Shown piece by piece: positions 1-58,562 of a DNA stretch of 64,000 nucleotides. The DNA is taken from the IMG/VR virus record IMGVR_UViG_3300037400_003286, one strand, 5' to 3'. The DNA is from a virus. Its lineage: Duplodnaviria > Caudoviricetes. A program made the translations under genes and the position numbers. The stretch's first letter is position 1. Each line of letters begins with the position of its first letter. Under the pieces are notes generated by a model. It ran no database searches, was not told where the DNA came from, and saw only the letters and a program-made list of their open reading frames with translations.

Positions 1-23
1 AAACTCTGTAAATAATTAATTAT

Positions 24-34
24 AGATAAATAGT
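24..34 (+). promoter_or_regulatory. Putative phage late promoter AGATAAATAGT (variant of T4 TATAAATA)
   Basis: The same motif recurs about 20-45 nt upstream of many structural genes in the window. Confidence 0.75.
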
Positions 35-58
35 TCAAAGGATTTAATTCACATATTA

Positions 59-310
59 ATGTATTATCCAAATAAAAGAAGTGGTCGCTGGTATTGTACA
101 CGTCATCAGGACATGTATACTGACTTAGGTTTCAAATACACTGGTCATATCTATGATCATACCATAAGTCCAGTGATTATGAGAAACAAGAGAAATAAAG
201 AGATACTATCACATATTGAACCTTTGATTGTATATATAATCGAAGCTGTAAAGCAAATCAAACTTCAATATATGTTCTCTTTAGACAAAAACGATACAAG
301 AGTTAACTAA
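59..310 (+). CDS. Small hypothetical late protein
   Basis: 83-aa ORF after a late promoter; its stop overlaps the ATG of the next gene (TAATG). Confidence 0.7.
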   Translation: MYYPNKRSGRWYCTRHQDMYTDLGFKYTGHIYDHTISPVIMRNKRNKEILSHIEPLIVYIIEAVKQIKLQYMFSLDKNDTRVN

Positions 311-6577: not shown

Positions 6578-7339
6578 TTAGCTGTTTCTCATTTCTTCAA
6601 ATATGTTATATAACTCATTGTGTTTGTCCATTACTTCATTCGCAAGTTCAGAACAACCTTTTCGAATCCAGTTTTTGACACTTGCAGAAGAAACCTTATT
6701 TTCTTCAGCAATTGTATCAACCTTCTTCTGATTTATATATCTCTCTTTCATAACGATCCTCAAATGATCAGGAAGATAATCCATACATTCTATGGATGCG
6801 TCGTATATATCAGATAACACCTTTGATTTTGTATATGTCTTGAACTCTCCACCGTTAAACGACATATTTTCGATCTCCTCGTCAGAGAACATATCATCAA
6901 ACAAGCATCCTTCATCAGATGATACTATTCTTTCATGAACATCTGAAAGATCTATATTTACTGTGTTTATCTTACTCTTATACCCACCAGACCTGAAATA
7001 TGTCACAGCATCATTATGTGCAATCCTATACATCCATGTTGAAAACTTACCAGCATCATCCTTGAAACTGTCTATTCTGAAATAAACATGTTCCATCGTT
7101 ATACTCAGTATGTTTTCAGTATCTTCCTTGCTTCCTGTCATACCGTAGATATAAGTCCTAAGCCCCCATGAACATCTTTTCATAAGAGCATTGAAATTTT
7201 TCTCACTATGGTCATCAATGAATCTCTGAGCTAGAAGCTGAATATCCTTGTTTTCTTCCTGAATCTTCTTCTTTTTCTCAGCAGGATCTACAACATGACC
7301 AGGATTAAATATACTATTTTTGGACATAGGCTCGCTCAT
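6578..7339 (-). CDS. RNA polymerase sigma factor, ECF-like (sigma70 regions 2 and 4)
   Basis: Region-2-like FNALMKR..SKEDTENIL..GKFSTWMYRIAHN; region-4-like LPDHLRIVM..TIAEENKVSSASVKNWIRKG. Confidence 0.85.
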   Translation of the reverse strand: MSEPMSKNSIFNPGHVVDPAEKKKKIQEENKDIQLLAQRFIDDHSEKNFNALMKRCSWGLRTYIYGMTGSKEDTENILSITMEHVYFRIDSFKDDAGKFSTWMYRIAHNDAVTYFRSGGYKSKINTVNIDLSDVHERIVSSDEGCLFDDMFSDEEIENMSFNGGEFKTYTKSKVLSDIYDASIECMDYLPDHLRIVMKERYINQKKVDTIAEENKVSSASVKNWIRKGCSELANEVMDKHNELYNIFEEMRNS

Positions 7340-9454: not shown

Positions 9455-9469
9455 TTGCAAATATACAAC
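9455..9469 (-). promoter_or_regulatory. Host-type (Bacteroidota sigmaA -7) promoter GTTGTATATTTGCAA
   Basis: Contains TAnnTTTG; identical 15-mer at 12931 and 38215. Confidence 0.75.
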
Positions 9470-9543: not shown

Positions 9544-12881
<3,338 letters not shown>

Positions 12882-12930: not shown

Positions 12931-12945
12931 TTGCAAATATACAAC
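12931..12945 (-). promoter_or_regulatory. Host-type (Bacteroidota sigmaA -7) promoter GTTGTATATTTGCAA
   Basis: About 50 nt upstream of the MFS start; identical to the 9455 and 38215 copies. Confidence 0.75.
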
Positions 12946-13228: not shown

Positions 13229-13337
13229 TATAGTCTAAAAAATATATTATTTCAATACATTTAATCAAAACAAGAAATTCAATAATATCAAAATATCCAG
13301 GACTTCTAAACGATTACATTTGTTTGGACTAAAAAAT

Positions 13338-16424: not shown

Positions 16425-16888
16425 TATGTCTTTCCTATCTTTATTTCCTCAATCCTGATACGATTATTGATAGCAAATATAATACCATCAATTGTCTTGA
16501 TAGTATTATCAAGATACCCAAGATGTGACTCCATGATATCTATGAGATATTTATCATCTGAAAGCTGAGATTCAATCTGTTCTCTTATCGCCGATTCTGT
16601 TGAAAACATAAATGTTGTAGCACCTTGTGCTGTCTTCATAAGACGAATCTCTTTATACAGTCTTGCTGAGTTTTCTTTGTACTTTTTTGAATATTTAGCA
16701 ATAGTGGCCGCAAGAGAATGATAATTCTCTACGGCCTCCTGTCTTTTGGTATAAACAACACCCTGAAGATTGACAACCGTATCAATAGATTTAAGGCTAT
16801 TGTTCATATCCTCTATCCATTTGATCCAATAATCACGTCTTTCTGTAAATTTGTTTTCTATAGCTTCAAATTTATTCTCCATCATCAA
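16424..16888 (-). CDS. uvsY: Recombination mediator (UvsY-like)
   Basis: Helical, about 150 aa, directly downstream of uvsX; C-terminus IKTIDGIIFAINNRI resembles UvsY. Confidence 0.6.
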   Translation of the reverse strand: MMMENKFEAIENKFTERRDYWIKWIEDMNNSLKSIDTVVNLQGVVYTKRQEAVENYHSLAATIAKYSKKYKENSARLYKEIRLMKTAQGATTFMFSTESAIREQIESQLSDDKYLIDIMESHLGYLDNTIKTIDGIIFAINNRIRIEEIKIGKT

Positions 16889-18098
16889 CGTTTAAAAGTT
16901 CCTCAATATCATCATTACCAGTATTTGATGGTAATTCAAAACTTGGTCTGATTATAGTTTCATCCAGGTTTTTTAAAACTTCTTCTGTGAGAACTTTCGA
17001 TGAGAATAATTCTACAGCAGGTAACTCACAACCAAGATGTTTTACAACTATGTTCTTTGATGTTTCTTTGGGATAAGCGTAACAAAGTTTTCCTTCAGAA
17101 TCCTTCATCTCACAACAAAGATTCTTTTCAAGGTCAGAAAGTTTATTATATTCTTTCTCTGTAATGAGTTTTCCTCTCATTATACCAGAATTATCCCAAG
17201 TTATATAAGATTCAAGACCAACATAAGGATTTGGTGCTTTAAAGAATGGTATCTGGAATCTAACTTTCTGTGGAATGGTGAATCTTGACTTCTCTGGCTT
17301 TGCTGTTACAACGACACCTGTTTTTACAAAATCACCAACTTTATTTTCAGCGATCTTATCTGATTGTTTATCTTCAAGTTTAGCTGTTGATAATAACAAT
17401 GTAACAGATGCATTAAAATTAATACCAGAACCTCCAGATACTACTGTTTTTGCAAACAGATCCTGTGTTCTATAAATATGGGCATTAACAATAAACGGTG
17501 CTTGAATTTTTCCGAGTGCTGTAGCATTTGTTCTAAAAAGGGCCTTAACAGCTTGAGCACGAGTCATATCCCTTTTATCGTTACCATCAATTGTATCATT
17601 AAGCTCTTTATCTGATGTTAAGTTTCCAAGAGAATCAAGAACAAATATTACCTTTGGTCTTTCTTCTTCTGGCATATCAAGAATTGATTTACAAGTACGA
17701 GCTATAAATGTTGATACTTCCGATACAGTGGTTACTTGTTTAATGATGAAATTATTTGGATCCGCTCCAAGCTTAGAAACCTGGTCCAGATCTATAGCAG
17801 ATTCAGAATCCAAATATATCGGTGTATATCCTTTCTTTTGAGCATTTCTACATACACTTATAGCAAGGAACGTTTTTCCAGTTCCAGGATCTCCAGCCAA
17901 AACAGTACATCTTCCAGCAGGAACACCCTTTAAAAGTGAACCAGATATGCAAGCATTAAGAATATAGCTACCAGTATCAATATAGTCACTGATAACTGCT
18001 GTCTTACTTTTACCAAGAATCTCTGCCGATTCATCAAAACTTTTTACGATATCGAAAATCGATCCACCAGCAGATTTAGTTGTCGTTTTCTTTGCCAT
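16872..18098 (-). CDS. uvsX: RecA-like recombinase UvsX
   Basis: IDTGSYILNACISG, Walker A GDPGTGKT, YLDSESA, VLDSLGNL, DMTRAQ, SGGSG. Confidence 0.92.
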   Translation of the reverse strand: MAKKTTTKSAGGSIFDIVKSFDESAEILGKSKTAVISDYIDTGSYILNACISGSLLKGVPAGRCTVLAGDPGTGKTFLAISVCRNAQKKGYTPIYLDSESAIDLDQVSKLGADPNNFIIKQVTTVSEVSTFIARTCKSILDMPEEERPKVIFVLDSLGNLTSDKELNDTIDGNDKRDMTRAQAVKALFRTNATALGKIQAPFIVNAHIYRTQDLFAKTVVSGGSGINFNASVTLLLSTAKLEDKQSDKIAENKVGDFVKTGVVVTAKPEKSRFTIPQKVRFQIPFFKAPNPYVGLESYITWDNSGIMRGKLITEKEYNKLSDLEKNLCCEMKDSEGKLCYAYPKETSKNIVVKHLGCELPAVELFSSKVLTEEVLKNLDETIIRPSFELPSNTGNDDIEELLNVDDGE

Positions 18099-38201: not shown

Positions 38202-38229
38202 ACTATTTATCCTTTTGCAAATATACAAC
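38202..38229 (-). promoter_or_regulatory. Tandem host-type (GTTGTATATTTGCAA) and late (GGATAAATAGT) promoters of uvsW
   Basis: The two motifs lie back to back, 2 nt apart. Confidence 0.7.
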
Positions 38230-52852: not shown

Positions 52853-53313
52853 ATATTCAGGCTTTTACTTTGTATATCGAGATTATCGCTTGCCGCTAAT
52901 CTGTATCCTCCATATTGATCAAGTCCTTTCGGAATAAGAAGCTCAAGATTATCATCTGCTCTTATCGCTACAAGTTTAGCTGTCTTTAATGATTGTATAT
53001 AAAGACAGACAACTTCACCTTTCTCATTCTTCACTATACGGTTCACAACGCCAGTATAATGTTTATCACCATTATTGAATCCAACACCTCTCACAGTACA
53101 TCCAGGATGAATGTAATATTGGTGCTCTATCTTATTCGGCTTCTGCTGAAGAGTATCAGTCATAGGTAAGATTGAATAAATGTATCCTGGCTGCTTACCC
53201 TGCACATTATATGATGCTGGTGATAACGTATTGTCGTATCCACCTCCACCAACAAATCCGTACCCTCCACTTATAAGCGTACTTTCGTTTATACTTCTTC
53301 TTTTACTCTTCAT
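52849..53313 (-). CDS. Hypothetical late protein
   Basis: Start MKSKRRSINES; Gly-rich segment; end of the tail-tube operon. Confidence 0.65.
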   Translation of the reverse strand: MKSKRRSINESTLISGGYGFVGGGGYDNTLSPASYNVQGKQPGYIYSILPMTDTLQQKPNKIEHQYYIHPGCTVRGVGFNNGDKHYTGVVNRIVKNEKGEVVCLYIQSLKTAKLVAIRADDNLELLIPKGLDQYGGYRLAASDNLDIQSKSLNI

Positions 53314-53314
53314 A

Positions 53315-54754
53315 TTATGCAAATGCTAAATATTTAACTTGAACTGGGAATGGATTTGGATTATAAACAATTACACTTGGGATAAGGTTCTTTACCTCTG
53401 GATAGTTAGGATCATCAGGAATTGTAGTTCTAGCATAGAACTGTCCTACAGTCATCCAGTTGTTAGTTTTTGAAAGATAAGCGCAATATCCTTCAACACC
53501 CATCTGGTCTCTGTGTTCAAGATTTCTCTCGATCGATCTACCACTGTCTGTATATGATATGCTTGAATTTTCCCATTCATCAAGCATTTCTGGTACAACC
53601 TGAGGTATCTCATCGGAATCAATCCAGTCATCATATACTGAATTATGGCTGTAGAATCCCATCCACTTGTTGTAAAGATCCCTATCATATTCGCACTGGA
53701 AAAGATCATTCACGTCAACAATCTTTCTAACAGCAACGAATGTACCATCCAACAGGCATTCAGGAATAGCATAGAATTCCTGTACACGATCAGCAATATG
53801 AGCAACCTTTACGGCCTTCTGTATAGGTTCGATTGCTTCAGTGTTGTACTGAGGATAAACAATGTTCAGTACAATACCTAGCATAGCACCGTTCTTATAT
53901 CTCTTTGAAGGAACATATCTTCTGAAATCCTCGAAAAGATAAATCTTCCTTACATCATTTTCCTCAAGTATTTCGTTAAAGTCCGTATCAAGACAATTAA
54001 GAAGATTGTAAAGTCTTGTATAATCTTCTTTCTTGAGTATTGATGAATATGCATTTATAGCACCAGGTGAATAATTATCAATATTGTTACCCTTAACATA
54101 TCCATCATCCCATCCATAATCATATGAGTGACCATGTTCAATCATCCACTGGTTAATGTAATAGAATATGTCAGTACCGTCTTCTGAATTCCAGAACATT
54201 ACATGGCTTACCCAGAATTCGTAATCAAGCTTAGTTGCAGTGAATACTACATATCCGTCATCAAAAGTAACAGTGATTGGAATTTCCTTTTTCTCGAAAT
54301 AATTATTCATAGCATCTATGAATGTTATTTCCTCATCTATATTTCCAGTACACTTGATAATCTCTATCACTTTGTTACCAGTCTTAAGGTTAAGATACTT
54401 GATAACAAAGAATATCATTCCTTTGTACATCCAGTCTTCATCTTCTGTGATAGGACCGATTATTCTTCCGTAAGACTTCGAGCAATATGAATCACCGAAC
54501 AACCAACCTCTGATATAACAGAACTCATTTGGCTGGAGTATTCTTGAGTTTGATGTGTACTGTGAAAGTCCGACATGTATATCTGACAGATCGATCGAAG
54601 AAAGAACACCGTTGTTGTCTGTTATCTCTCCGCTTGATTCGTTAATGTCGAATGATAGTTCATCGGCAGAATCACCATTGCTACACAGTATATCGGCATA
54701 AATGTATGATTTTGTCGGATTGTTATAATATTTTGAAAAAAGATCCGTTGCCAT
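53315..54754 (-). CDS. Hypothetical late (structural) protein
   Basis: 479-aa ORF downstream of the tail-tube-like gene. Confidence 0.65.
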   Translation of the reverse strand: MATDLFSKYYNNPTKSYIYADILCSNGDSADELSFDINESSGEITDNNGVLSSIDLSDIHVGLSQYTSNSRILQPNEFCYIRGWLFGDSYCSKSYGRIIGPITEDEDWMYKGMIFFVIKYLNLKTGNKVIEIIKCTGNIDEEITFIDAMNNYFEKKEIPITVTFDDGYVVFTATKLDYEFWVSHVMFWNSEDGTDIFYYINQWMIEHGHSYDYGWDDGYVKGNNIDNYSPGAINAYSSILKKEDYTRLYNLLNCLDTDFNEILEENDVRKIYLFEDFRRYVPSKRYKNGAMLGIVLNIVYPQYNTEAIEPIQKAVKVAHIADRVQEFYAIPECLLDGTFVAVRKIVDVNDLFQCEYDRDLYNKWMGFYSHNSVYDDWIDSDEIPQVVPEMLDEWENSSISYTDSGRSIERNLEHRDQMGVEGYCAYLSKTNNWMTVGQFYARTTIPDDPNYPEVKNLIPSVIVYNPNPFPVQVKYLAFA

Positions 54755-54778
54755 TCTCTTTTTGTATTTATATTTCTT

Positions 54779-55327
54779 TTAATTTATATCAAACCTGTTA
54801 TATCTCAGGTTTATACTGAATGTGTTGTATGAAGCAACCGTTGCAGCATAACTAAGATTAAGCTCACTTGTATTTGTAGGTGTTATCTCCCAGAATGTAA
54901 ACTCAAGCATTTGGAATCCAGAATCCGAAAGGAATGCAAGCTTCACTGGTTCCATCCAGCAAGGCTGCTTCTGCTTTGGATCATTCACATAATGAAGGAA
55001 TACATCCATCTGATGCCAGAAGATCCAATATGAAAGATAGCTTTCTGTGAGCTTCATTGTAAGTTTGAGGTTCTTGTCTATCAGTGGTTCAAGTTCTTTA
55101 CCACCGTAGTAAGCAACCTCATATTGTCCTCGTTGCTGTGTTGATAAATCAAGGTTCATTGCTGGGAATACAACACCCTGTACCTGATCGTTCATGAAAT
55201 CAGCAACAGATTCATACGGTAGCCTCATTCTCTGTACCATAGGTGTCCACGTCTGAACAACATCGTCATACCAGAAGTTTGACGGGAAGTAGAACGAAAA
55301 CATCTGAGGTAAATTGTTTAATACCAT
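54779..55327 (-). CDS. Tail tube-fold protein (gp19/gp3-like)
   Basis: VQGVVFPAMN..LKLTMKLTESYLSY..FWEITPTNTSELNLSY..TFSINLRYNRF; late promoter at 55347-55357. Confidence 0.7.
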   Translation of the reverse strand: MVLNNLPQMFSFYFPSNFWYDDVVQTWTPMVQRMRLPYESVADFMNDQVQGVVFPAMNLDLSTQQRGQYEVAYYGGKELEPLIDKNLKLTMKLTESYLSYWIFWHQMDVFLHYVNDPKQKQPCWMEPVKLAFLSDSGFQMLEFTFWEITPTNTSELNLSYAATVASYNTFSINLRYNRFDIN

Positions 55328-55372
55328 CTATTGAGACTTTCTTTTCACTATTTATCTGATCTTACTAATGTA

Positions 55373-56800
55373 TTGAAAACATATAATTTTATAAATTTTA
55401 TAAACTATATAAATTCATTTAAGGGTTAATATTTAACACCTTTGGTGATACAATGTCACCTCTATCTCGTAAGCTAACAATGCTAGCATCTGAGATTTCT
55501 TTTGCTTTTCTCATGATGCCTATAGCACCATTTATATCAGCATTAATTAATTTTCCTGTTGAACTTTTGAACATACCACGTTTTATTCTCCTACCGAGAT
55601 ATTCGTCATGATGTTCCATCGTTTCAAACATTAAATGGTCACACTTTGAAGTATAACTTTCTTCTACTATCTTAAGATTAAGATTAAGATATTTCTCAAC
55701 TTTATAATTCAATATATCAATTAACCTGTTAAACGGAATCGAAACAAAATTCTGGTTATTCCTTTTGCCTAAACTTATATCCTGTTTCCAGTTATTATTA
55801 TGCCCTATACATATAGTTTCAATTTTGTTTTCTAAGCATAACTTAATAATTCTATTTGCAACGGTATGCATGTAATGTTCTATTCTAAGGTTTCTTTTCT
55901 TAGATAGTAAAATAAGTCTTTTACTTGTTTTTCGTTTTTCACCGTTACATTTATTTAACTCAGAAAGAATTTCAGATTTTCTTTTGTTATAATACTGGTT
56001 TATACTTTTTAATGGACCACCCTTAACAACGTATGATATACTTTTGTCGTTTGCAGTTATAGCACATAAATTATTCAAACCAATATCTATACCTATAGCA
56101 GAACCTTTATCAATTTCATTGTCTATATACTTTAAATCTTCATATACTATATTGAATTTTATTTTATCATAAAATTTAGAGAAGGAAATCATATGAACAG
56201 AATCCATTTTTATATGCAAAGGTATCTGTAGTTTATACTGTGTATTAGGGATACGTATTTCATTCTCCTTACACCATTTAGTCCTAAATCTTGATGAATC
56301 TACCTGAACTATATTATATTTCTTTCTCTTATGTAAATAATTAGGTATACAAGGCTTACCTTTAAAGTTAGATGGATTTTTATAATATGATTTCAATGCT
56401 TTCATATAATCCCTCCAGTTCTGTGATACCTGCCTTATAGCATAGGTTTTTGGGCCTATGTCAAGTTTAGAATCCTTATATGCTGGAGTTAATTTTACTA
56501 AATCCCACAACTCCTTAAAAGAATATGCCTTGTATTTTTCATTGTTATTCCTACCTCTAAAATATTCCTGTCTCTGATAATATAATGCCTGATCATAGAT
56601 AGATAAACTATCCTCCATACAACTTAAAAGTTCTGGAGTATTATTTGTTACTATTTGAATTACACTTAACATTATATTATTAGATATTATCGTTTATATA
56701 TTTATCTATATTTTATAAATAAATTTTATTATTTTTTGATTTTATAATCTAAAATATATATTTATGATTTATATAATTTATATGATATTTACTGATTTGA
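55373..56800 (-). mobile_element. IS200/IS605-family solo-TnpB element (no tnpA); left boundary approximate
   Basis: Right end on the minus strand reads GAAT-hairpin-TTTTCAA, as in the IS608 GR/CR arrangement; more AT-rich than the flanks; inserted between two divergent late promoters. Confidence 0.7.
55419..56672 (-). CDS. tnpB: RNA-guided endonuclease TnpB
   Basis: RuvC-I GIDIGLNNL, GHNNNWKQ..LGKRNNQNFVSIPF, VEESYTSKC, RuvC-III INADINGA. Confidence 0.92.
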   Translation of the reverse strand: MLSVIQIVTNNTPELLSCMEDSLSIYDQALYYQRQEYFRGRNNNEKYKAYSFKELWDLVKLTPAYKDSKLDIGPKTYAIRQVSQNWRDYMKALKSYYKNPSNFKGKPCIPNYLHKRKKYNIVQVDSSRFRTKWCKENEIRIPNTQYKLQIPLHIKMDSVHMISFSKFYDKIKFNIVYEDLKYIDNEIDKGSAIGIDIGLNNLCAITANDKSISYVVKGGPLKSINQYYNKRKSEILSELNKCNGEKRKTSKRLILLSKKRNLRIEHYMHTVANRIIKLCLENKIETICIGHNNNWKQDISLGKRNNQNFVSIPFNRLIDILNYKVEKYLNLNLKIVEESYTSKCDHLMFETMEHHDEYLGRRIKRGMFKSSTGKLINADINGAIGIMRKAKEISDASIVSLRDRGDIVSPKVLNINP

Positions 56801-56825
56801 GTATAATCGTATTCGCAATTCTCTC

Positions 56826-56836
56826 AGATAAATAGT
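56826..56836 (+). promoter_or_regulatory. Late promoter AGATAAATAGT
   Basis: 23 nt upstream of ATG 56860. Confidence 0.8.
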
Positions 56837-56859
56837 CAAAAGGAATCTGAAGCTTTACA

Positions 56860-57093
56860 ATGGCTTATTATTTAAGAAAGAAAAAGGTTGTTGATGAATG
56901 TGACGGTGGTTGTGATGTAGCTTGCGCTGCGCCTATGACTGATATTCCAGACGGAATCGGACCAGTCATTCCTGGACATTCTGGTGACAGGTTTGACAAT
57001 ATATTAGGTGCTGGATTTGTCAATACAATACCTATGATGTCAGCAACATCTAAGAAGAAATACAAGATTCGTAAAAGAAAGACGAAACAATAA
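56860..57093 (+). CDS. Small hypothetical late protein with basic termini
   Basis: 77 aa; TAATG overlap with the next gene. Confidence 0.65.
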   Translation: MAYYLRKKKVVDECDGGCDVACAAPMTDIPDGIGPVIPGHSGDRFDNILGAGFVNTIPMMSATSKKKYKIRKRKTKQ

Positions 57094-58469
57094 TGGAAGA
57101 ACAGAAAACACCTTTATACCAGAGATATAATTTCGATAACGTTTTCAACAGAAGCGTTATTGCTGGTTTATTGTACCTTCTTAATCACAACCTAACATAC
57201 GAACAGGTATGGGATGATAATACTGTTGAACAAGTTACAGTACCGTTTGCATATAATTTCGCACATGCAAGAGATCAAAGATTTGCTCAGGATAACTATA
57301 CATTCTTCGGAAGAGAATGTTTCTCCGATAAATTCATAGACGGTAAGTTCGATATGTGTCCAAGATTCGCAATGACATATACTGGTTCTCAGATTGAAGC
57401 ATCAAACATAACAAACAGATTCGTAAAGGGAACATACATGAAGGATGAGAATGGTGTACTTACATCATATACAGCTTTCATGTACTCAATTCCACTTACT
57501 TTGAATTTTGAATTTGAAGGATGGATTGATACACTAGAAACCGCATTCAAAATTGAACAGGCAATCAGAGAAGCATTCTATAAGAATCAGACATTCAATG
57601 TTTTGTATAGAGGAATGAAAATCGGATGCCGTGCTGGATTCCCAGAATCTTATTCTGTCGGAGAGAAAACCGTAAGCTATTCATTCGAATCTGAATCACA
57701 GCTTATCAAAATGAGTTTCTCTCTTGCAATTGAAGCATACCAGCCTTGCTTTGATGAATCTCAGTCTATACAAAGTGAAAAGAAGATTGAATATTTTGCT
57801 TTCGATCCTGCCGTTTATAATAATCACAACACACCGACAAACAAGCAGATAGAATTACATCTTCATCCTATTGATACATCAATATATTACGCTGCTGGTC
57901 AGACCATAGAAATATCATGGGATGCAATATCAAACTCATCTGACGTATATACAATATTGCTTTATTATATAACACCAGACGGTGACAAACATATAATAGA
58001 ATGTTCACTTCGTCAACACAACTTCTTTGACTGGACTATACCAGGAAACATTTCCAATTTCAAACAACCTAATGTTCTGTTCTATGATACCGATGAAATT
58101 CAGATCAAGAAACAACCTAATATCGTTGTCATACCAGAATCAACAGGATATGTCAACAGTGGATGTTTCGGTATATTGGATCCAGGAGAATTTTCAAATG
58201 ACGGATATGTTCAGGTATCATGTGAATATAATGATGCATCATCGAACATAAAAATACACGATTGTTACATTGCTGAAGTATCAAAAGAAGAAGGTGTAAA
58301 ACAAATTTTCTATTATAAAGATACACCTGTTTATGAAGAGTTTGTTGTAACGAATCCGAAACGCTTAAAATACAAAAAAGGTGACTTTGGAACCGAAATT
58401 ACAGTAGGAATCGCATATCCACAAAATATGGAAATTAAGGATGAAATACATAATTTGTTGATAATCTGA
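57093..58469 (+). CDS. Tail terminator/sheath stabiliser (T4 gp15-like) with C-terminal Ig-like extension
   Basis: VTVPFAY..PRFAMTYTG..SIPLTLNFEFEGW..FKIEQAIREAFY; extension YAAGQTIEISWD..FDWTIP. Confidence 0.7.
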   Translation: MEEQKTPLYQRYNFDNVFNRSVIAGLLYLLNHNLTYEQVWDDNTVEQVTVPFAYNFAHARDQRFAQDNYTFFGRECFSDKFIDGKFDMCPRFAMTYTGSQIEASNITNRFVKGTYMKDENGVLTSYTAFMYSIPLTLNFEFEGWIDTLETAFKIEQAIREAFYKNQTFNVLYRGMKIGCRAGFPESYSVGEKTVSYSFESESQLIKMSFSLAIEAYQPCFDESQSIQSEKKIEYFAFDPAVYNNHNTPTNKQIELHLHPIDTSIYYAAGQTIEISWDAISNSSDVYTILLYYITPDGDKHIIECSLRQHNFFDWTIPGNISNFKQPNVLFYDTDEIQIKKQPNIVVIPESTGYVNSGCFGILDPGEFSNDGYVQVSCEYNDASSNIKIHDCYIAEVSKEEGVKQIFYYKDTPVYEEFVVTNPKRLKYKKGDFGTEITVGIAYPQNMEIKDEIHNLLII

Positions 58470-58562
58470 TAGTTACAATTTTACATTTTTATAAAAATTT
58501 TTTGCGTTTTGAAAATAAATAGTAAAAGGATAATTTTAAACATATTTAACACATAATTTTAC

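Follow-up and report, generated by a model that had tools for sequence, protein, structure and literature searches.

The window analysed here, the whole 64-kb stretch of DNA from virus record IMGVR_UViG_3300037400_003286 (Duplodnaviria; Caudoviricetes), carries T4-like phage genes and, towards one end, a tnpB gene without a tnpA partner. An original prediction, made from the letters alone, had described it as a tnpB without tnpA, and this is confirmed: the gene is a 417-aa open reading frame (ORF) at 55419-56672 on the minus strand, and a tblastn search of the window with the TnpA of related elements returned only matches at E>2. It lies, as also predicted, between two divergent copies of a late-promoter motif, and we find that it belongs to a 1438-bp element, classed by its sequence relationships with the IS607 family, that is missing from an otherwise near-identical phage allele. 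The features of the locus are given below, with OMEGA standing for obligate mobile element-guided activity and TAM for transposon-associated motif.

54779-55327, minus: tail-tube-like gene, 182 aa (ESM Atlas look-alikes named tail tube)
55346-55365, minus: predicted guide and target, GTAAGATCAGATAAATAGTG, beginning with the flank base that adjoins the conserved right end
55347-55357, minus: late-promoter motif AGATAAATAGT of the host, 21 nt ahead of the ATG of the tail-tube-like gene and wholly within the predicted guide
55366-55496, minus: omegaRNA-like scaffold, six helices (55496-55374) and then the unpaired tail AATACATTA (RNAalifold, covariation)
55366-56803, minus: whole element, 1438 bp, classed as a tnpA-less IS607-family OMEGA element (comparison of copies and empty-site contig)
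55419-56672, minus: tnpB, 417 aa, RuvC triad D196/E338/D379 (Pfam OrfB_IS605 and Cas12f1-like_TNB)
56673-56803, minus: non-coding left end, beginning TACTCAAATC..., with tnpA deleted (alignment with L003, L006 and the autonomous L020/L114)
56699-56707, minus: AGATAAATA, late-promoter-like motif inside the element, 26 nt before the tnpB ATG
56804-56808, minus: GATTA, target site and presumed TAM, adjoining the left end on its 5' side (10 independent junctions; single copy in the empty allele)
56826-56836, plus: divergent host late-promoter motif AGATAAATAGT for the operon at 56860, 17 nt from the GATTA target

Ends, empty allele and family of the element

Two comparisons agree on where the element begins and ends. 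Similarity to copies residing elsewhere starts at 56803 and stops at 55366, both for three close copies (L003, L132 and L133; 94% identity) and for two more distant ones (L006 and L113; 73-75%), and over this stretch the GC content is 25-31%, against ~36% in the flanks and genome. A 479-nt contig from an independent cattle-gut run (X2) joins 55365 to 56804 and omits the 1438 nt between them, with 1/110 and 3/369 mismatches in its two flanks (99% identity to those of the occupied allele) and 4 nt (ATTA) assignable to either side; on the minus strand this empty site reads ...ACGATTA followed directly by GTAAGATCAGATAAATAGTG... The original prediction had proposed a search for such empty-site alleles, and the one found fixes the left end at 56803 and leaves GATTA as the presumed TAM. 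The right end, which had been placed at TTTTCAA (55373), has to be moved: a further TACATTA is conserved there in all copies, the X2 contig sets the boundary at 55366, and the element terminates ...TCAATACATTA.

The same phage carries the element at the same site in a pig-gut run (X6), and in relatives at ~55% protein identity only 4-7 nt, and no insert, lie between the two promoter motifs. Near-identical genomes therefore differ at one site—empty in X2, occupied in X6 and in the window—and the predicted nuclease target spans the empty site, as in homing elements. Insertion took place 3' of GATTA, between back-to-back late promoters that point away from each other. Across 10 independent junctions the bases preceding the left end are GATTA, GATTG or GAATG and those at the right end CATTA, CATTG, CAATA or CAATG; occupied junctions read GATTA/TAC...CATTA/G, and the shared A(T/A)T would fit the crossover core of a serine recombinase. 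As a separate observation, the X6 copy and element contigs from X2 share 19 clustered substitutions relative to the window element (55746-55863), a cluster that suggests recombination between element copies.

Within the clade of this TnpB, defined as full-length members at ≥54% identity, two relatives (L014 and L020) encode a helix-turn-helix (HTH) and serine-recombinase protein of 197-199 aa directly upstream of tnpB (PF00239, E = 1e-21 and 2e-17), and two others (L102 and L114) have upstream reading frames with the same TnpA C-terminus; the left end of the autonomous L020 and L114 begins TACTTAAATAGATAAATAC and continues into tnpA. Among bacterial homologues of known type, the TnpBs of several Helicobacter pylori IS607-type loci come nearest, with 35-37% identity over residues 22-410. 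No Y1 transposase gene was seen beside any element copy examined, the transposase being a serine recombinase wherever one is present. Because its clade relatives carry a serine-recombinase TnpA directly upstream, the window element is, on sequence grounds, a tnpA-less derivative of the IS607 family rather than an autonomous member. Like IS607 and IS1535 it has no terminal inverted repeats and, from the comparison of empty and occupied alleles, no target-site duplication, with an omegaRNA-like 3' end and a flank-derived guide; unlike them, it lacks tnpA, its clade is found only on phage-like contigs, and a T4-type motif precedes tnpB and, in two autonomous copies, tnpA.

The original prediction had instead read the right end by the GAAT/TCAA logic of IS608, which is the wrong family. 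We rejected an IS608/IS605-type assignment on three counts: the transposase of the clade is a serine recombinase, the element ends 7 nt past TCAA, and the right-end hairpins are omegaRNA helices. With ISDra2 and IS608 (IS200/IS605, Y1 HUH) the element shares the fold of an RNA-guided RuvC nuclease, and, as when those elements home restoratively (Meers et al. 2023, PMC10055086), the presumed TAM is the transposon target site and the guide matches the element-free joint; it differs from them in its class of transposase and in the architecture of its ends, follows no TTAC/TCAA hairpin logic and has no TnpA in cis, and the target that we propose is a co-infecting genome, not an excised sister copy.

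Nuclease, structured RNA and predicted guide

The three catalytic residues of the RuvC domain, D196 (in IGIDLG), E338 (EESYTSK) and D379 (NADINGA), are invariant in an alignment of 36 sequences. A phmmer search of the PDB with TnpB gave no match, and a profile search alone gave weak matches to Cas12f that cover the first and last RuvC motifs; an AlphaFold2 model (pLDDT, the predicted local distance difference test, 85.9) was matched by Foldseek with probability 1.0 to Cas12f, ISFba1 TnpB and ISDra2 TnpB. From the intact triad and the fold we infer that the protein probably acts as an RNA-guided nuclease that uses a TAM and cleaves its target.

The 3' end of tnpB overlaps a structured region that runs to the right end of the element. 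When the last ~130 nt of 16 copies were folded together with RNAalifold, 37 pairs were recovered, 11 of them with compensatory changes and several of these at synonymous codon positions; paired cells reached 96.4%, against 30-44% in slid controls, and covariation was 0.279 versus 0.125, the former value being attained in 0/500 shuffles. The single-sequence fold scores z = -3.0, and no Rfam family matched over 54700-57200 at E≤1. The GGTGA..TCACC and AT-rich hairpins noted in the original prediction are real parts of this covarying structure, the former its helix 3 and the latter its helices 5/6. Such a structured RNA, overlapping the 3' end of tnpB as well as the right end, is as expected of an omegaRNA, and the controls that it exceeds make it a good candidate for one.

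If the RNA continues into the flank, its guide would start at 55365, the first base beyond the conserved right end, which puts the previously proposed register (55372-55353) 7 nt out. With an assumed length of ~16-20 nt, the guide predicted at 55365-55346 spans the entire late-promoter motif of the tail-tube-like gene; that the guide would reach this promoter had been foreseen, and it covers the whole motif. An exact match to the guide lies directly 3' of GATTA in the X2 empty allele.

Elsewhere, a miniature derivative without tnpB (L105:11865-12047) runs from its left end straight into the last ~185 nt, which form the omegaRNA region, and L118:~900-1032 likewise appears to lack tnpB. In one RNA run (X19), summed contig depth was 22.6 and 12.1 over 55307-55508, compared with 0-5 over the tnpB body, and one RNA-library contig extends from the right end into a different flank; these are Logan contigs derived from other copies, and the RNA library may hold DNA, so that the depth is a weak hint at most of an omegaRNA.

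Late-promoter-like motifs of phage and element

The phage of the window is T4-like: it encodes a portal of the T4 gp20 type as well as proteins of head closure and baseplate, along with helicases, a RecA/UvsX-like recombinase, an NAD ligase and a protein of the sigma-70 family. CheckV estimates for two IMG/VR relatives of the phage imply a genome of ~400 kb, the size of a jumbo phage; blastn of 53300-58500 against INPHARED and GenBank phages gave no DNA match. T4 late promoters have a single -10 element, with consensus TATAAATA, before late or structural genes. For the 9-mer AGATAAATA, 2.7 copies would be expected in the window and 11 are present, a number reached in 0/100 shuffles. Most copies lie 19-30 nt before the start codons of structural genes (portal, tube-like, head-closure-like), and GT follows directly 3' in 8 of the 10 copies other than that before tnpB. 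In sequence and placement, AGATAAATA(GT) thus resembles the T4 late consensus, a -10-like element before late and structural genes. Sigma-70-type promoters are not enriched (20 found, 15.8 expected), and on the strand of tnpB we found no terminator that would separate it from the tube gene. The identity of that gene is a lead only: the 182-aa protein has no Pfam or PHROG match, and its name comes from ESM Atlas look-alikes (score 0.97-0.99), some of whose clusters contain Phage_TTP_2 in 26-44% and Phage_T4_gp19 in 10% of members. The longer form of the motif, AGATAAATAGT, recurs in the flanks of several hosts of near-identical element copies, and a candidate for its reader is the phage's own sigma-70-family protein (6578-7339, minus; Sigma70_r2 and r4_2; PHROG RNA polymerase sigma factor).

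The copy of AGATAAATA before tnpB lies inside the element; that it has the spacing of the structural genes the original prediction had noted. Whether other tnpB copies of the clade share it had been posed there as a check, and all of them do: (N)ATAAATA, mostly AGATAAATA, stands 20-31 nt before the ATG in 13/13 full-length copies, with differing neighbouring bases, and is identical in copies of the element at other loci. Autonomous copies, where the tnpA sought elsewhere was found, carry a motif before that gene too, the same one at ~22 nt in L020 and L114 and AATAAATA at ~24 nt in L014. Summed over 10 representatives and assuming independence, the log10 shuffle probabilities come to -8.7. The motif is absent upstream of TnpBs at 35-40% identity on viral contigs, and absent before tnpB in Helicobacter IS607 and the other bacterial relatives examined (35-37% identity). 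Of the proposed wiring of tnpB into the late programme, then, a late-promoter-like motif internal to the element stands; its acquisition by this phage copy does not, the motif being a conserved feature of the whole phage-borne clade. Its position suggests that tnpB may be transcribed from it and expressed late.

Proposed homing between co-infecting phages and its alternatives

We think it somewhat probable that this is a non-autonomous IS607-family OMEGA element, consisting of a left end, tnpB and an omegaRNA, that is expressed late and either homes into or excludes co-infecting phages that lack it, an account whose timing of expression, cleavage and biased inheritance are all argued from sequence. 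The phage late transcription machinery would read the motif before tnpB, and TnpB together with an omegaRNA processed from the tnpB transcript would be made late, while many phage genomes recombine. The ribonucleoprotein would recognise GATTA followed by GTAAGATCAGATAAATAGTG, a joint that should exist only in element-free genomes, and would cut inside the late promoter of the tube-like gene. Repair of the break from an element-bearing genome by UvsX-like recombination would copy the element in (non-restorative homing), and failed repair would remove the competitor genome (exclusion); new sites would be reached through an IS607 TnpA acting in trans. Recombination genes of the kind invoked in the original prediction are encoded, a RecA/UvsX-like recombinase and helicases, and a second, empty target lies at the edge of the window:

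16872-18098, minus: RecA/UvsX-like recombinase (Pfam RecA, E = 6e-14)
14-38, plus: second target, AATTA (14-18) followed by ATTATAGATAAATAGTTCAA, empty here and occupied in relative L113

Free-standing homing endonucleases of T4 (Seg, Mob; I-TevI) offer a parallel in lifestyle: they too are selfish nuclease genes between conserved T4-like genes, variably present among close relatives, and they spread by recombinational repair in mixed infection, some of them expressed late, as we propose for the window element. In contrast to these, recognition here would be by RNA, self and non-self would be set by the insertion itself, and transposon ends are retained. What we propose is that copying depends on TnpB but not on TnpA and fills the empty orthologous site in a replicon of the same cell, and such non-restorative homing has been shown for IS605 elements in plasmids, with phages a theoretical possibility only (PMC13565253).

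The clade appears to be a phage lineage. None of 185,579 species genomes held a member (best match 48% identity); members were found only on viral or metagenome contigs, one of them annotated in a Lak megaphage, and in IMG/VR a single-protein scan returned only distant TnpBs, clade members surfacing with an alignment query. Copies 92-96% identical occupy at least five other loci (L003/L004, L005, L131-L133); in each of 18 DNA runs roughly that part of the sampled words which belongs to the element is present, and the 24 listed runs represent 15 studies. In L113, a 75%-identical sister element follows GATTA, 5 nt before a late-promoter motif equivalent to window 24-32; its right flank corresponds to window 19-120 and its left flank to window 1-18 at 15/18 positions, and the empty site at 14-38 of the window contains a perfect 20-nt match to the guide of the L113 element. 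The simplest explanation for insertion just ahead of promoters is that these are the harmless sites in a packed genome, and a guide acquired there therefore targets constrained sequence.

Several observations weigh against homing from a late promoter. The copy of the motif before tnpB continues with TA, not with the GT of most host copies. A 7-mer match by chance is expected in ~20% of copies, upstream DNA being up to 93% AT, and the copies share ancestry; in autonomous copies (L014, L020 and L102) the motif overlaps the last codons of tnpA (E-D-K-stop), so that its conservation could be in part a coding relic. Promoter specificity across hosts is uncertain: the 11-mer AGATAAATAGT is absent in G001-G004, for which reason we rejected the idea that all hosts share it, and among G001-G005 only G004 and G005 show enrichment of the 9-mer, to which the IS607 copies themselves contribute in part; the closest sequenced relatives, G001 and G002, show none. 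The element also departs from canonical IS607, which has GG ends inserted at GG and a TAM of AGGAG or GAGGG (PMC13565253), in its AT-rich GATTA/CATTA junctions, and no CxxC..CxxC zinc finger was found in the TNB domain of its nuclease, where the corresponding region reads SKCDH...HH with a single, non-invariant Cys. Lastly, the presence/absence polymorphism could equally have arisen by TnpA-mediated insertion or excision.

Much of this would be accommodated by a passive passenger, an IS607-derived element that landed through TnpA in trans at one of few harmless spots in a densely packed phage genome, a short way ahead of a promoter; its ATAAATA would reflect AT-rich background, the C-terminal relic of tnpA or a TnpA-binding repeat, and the polymorphism insertion and precise excision. 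We regard this as rather unlikely, though it is the alternative that fares best. IS607 TnpA genes are common in related megaphages (six Resolvase matches in the 673-kb G005), near-identical copies at many loci require transposition, TATAAA-like repeats occur in the right end too, and only 2 of ~14 insertion sites abut a promoter motif. Against a passenger, solo copies that have lost the tnpA frame and whose surrounding bases have changed still have the motif in place, 20-31 nt ahead of the ATG, and it is present before tnpA itself. Selection, purifying or compensatory, clearly acts in solo copies on the tnpB frame, on the RuvC triad and on the pairing of the omegaRNA, and no other promoter is visible for the window tnpB, because the DNA upstream is transcribed away from it.

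Less probable again, to the point of being improbable, is a weapon that is no drive: TnpB and its omegaRNA would mainly destroy element-free co-infecting relatives at an essential late promoter, a form of marker exclusion that benefits the carrier with little or no copying of the element. Free-standing T-even homing endonucleases behave in this way (PMC13565253), the target lies in a conserved promoter, that of a structural gene, and an intact nuclease is conserved in a phage-restricted clade. Against it, the flanks of the empty and occupied alleles are 99% identical and the phage has a RecA-like recombinase, so that repair from the occupied allele, and hence homing, would be hard to avoid; exclusion and homing as outcomes are not mutually exclusive.

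A domesticated regulator resembling TldR (TnpB-like nuclease-dead repressor), which would bind the guide-matched promoter without cutting and tune late transcription, we consider extremely improbable. In its favour, nuclease-dead TnpB repressors are reported by Wiegand et al. 2024, and guide and promoter overlap in the window copy and in L113. Against it, the invariant D-E-D triad led us to reject a dead nuclease, the element splits the TAM of the carrier genome from its target so that the phage's own promoter is not one, and the guides of most copies are unrelated to promoters.

Beyond late-expressed homing or exclusion at this locus, a wider scenario can be put forward tentatively, and we would sooner doubt than assert it: a phage-restricted IS607 lineage has coupled its genes to the kind of late promoter that T4-like jumbo phages use, and derivatives of it without tnpA have survived as homing drives, guided by RNA, that pass between co-infecting phages, sitting beside late promoters so that the guide hits a motif that is hard for the victim to change. 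Phages often carry TnpB (PMC12607003), and we found no paper linking it to phage late promoters. The locus makes RNA-guided homing from phage to phage directly testable: it offers exact ends, a natural empty allele with a guide-matching TAM-target joint, a candidate late promoter conserved in a phage-only clade, a covarying omegaRNA, an AT-rich presumed TAM (GATTA/GATTG) unlike that of canonical IS607, and a compact 417-aa nuclease without a zinc finger. Were such homing confirmed, an RNA-guided class would join the homing elements of T4-like phages, and a transposon could be said to take on the temporal programme of its viral host.

Some smaller observations concern the surroundings of the element and its copies. 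Apart from the element itself, the window holds no further tnpB copy or omegaRNA-only element, save for a right-end-like stretch of 25 nt, AAAAATATATTATTTCAATACATTT (13238-13262, plus), which is intergenic, has no tnpB nearby and matches an L003-type right end at 23/25 positions (blastn E = 0.08); it could be the trace of a former right end, or a match that AT-rich DNA gives by chance. The near-identical copies L132 and L133 sit on phage-like contigs beside genes for Acb3 (anti-CBASS) and a GmrSD_N-domain protein, with a second, different TnpB gene 2 kb away in L133. A gene for a transporter of the MFS type (11706-12881, minus; Pfam MFS_1, E = 5.5e-20) adjoins that of the NAD-dependent DNA ligase. 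Another motif, TTGCAAATATACAAC, is repeated too and differs from the late one: it has three exact copies on the plus strand of the window (9455-9469, 12931-12945 and 38215-38229) and five with ≤2 mismatches, against 0.3 expected; L113 also has it in its left flank, and in this phage lineage it may be the sign of a further class of promoters.

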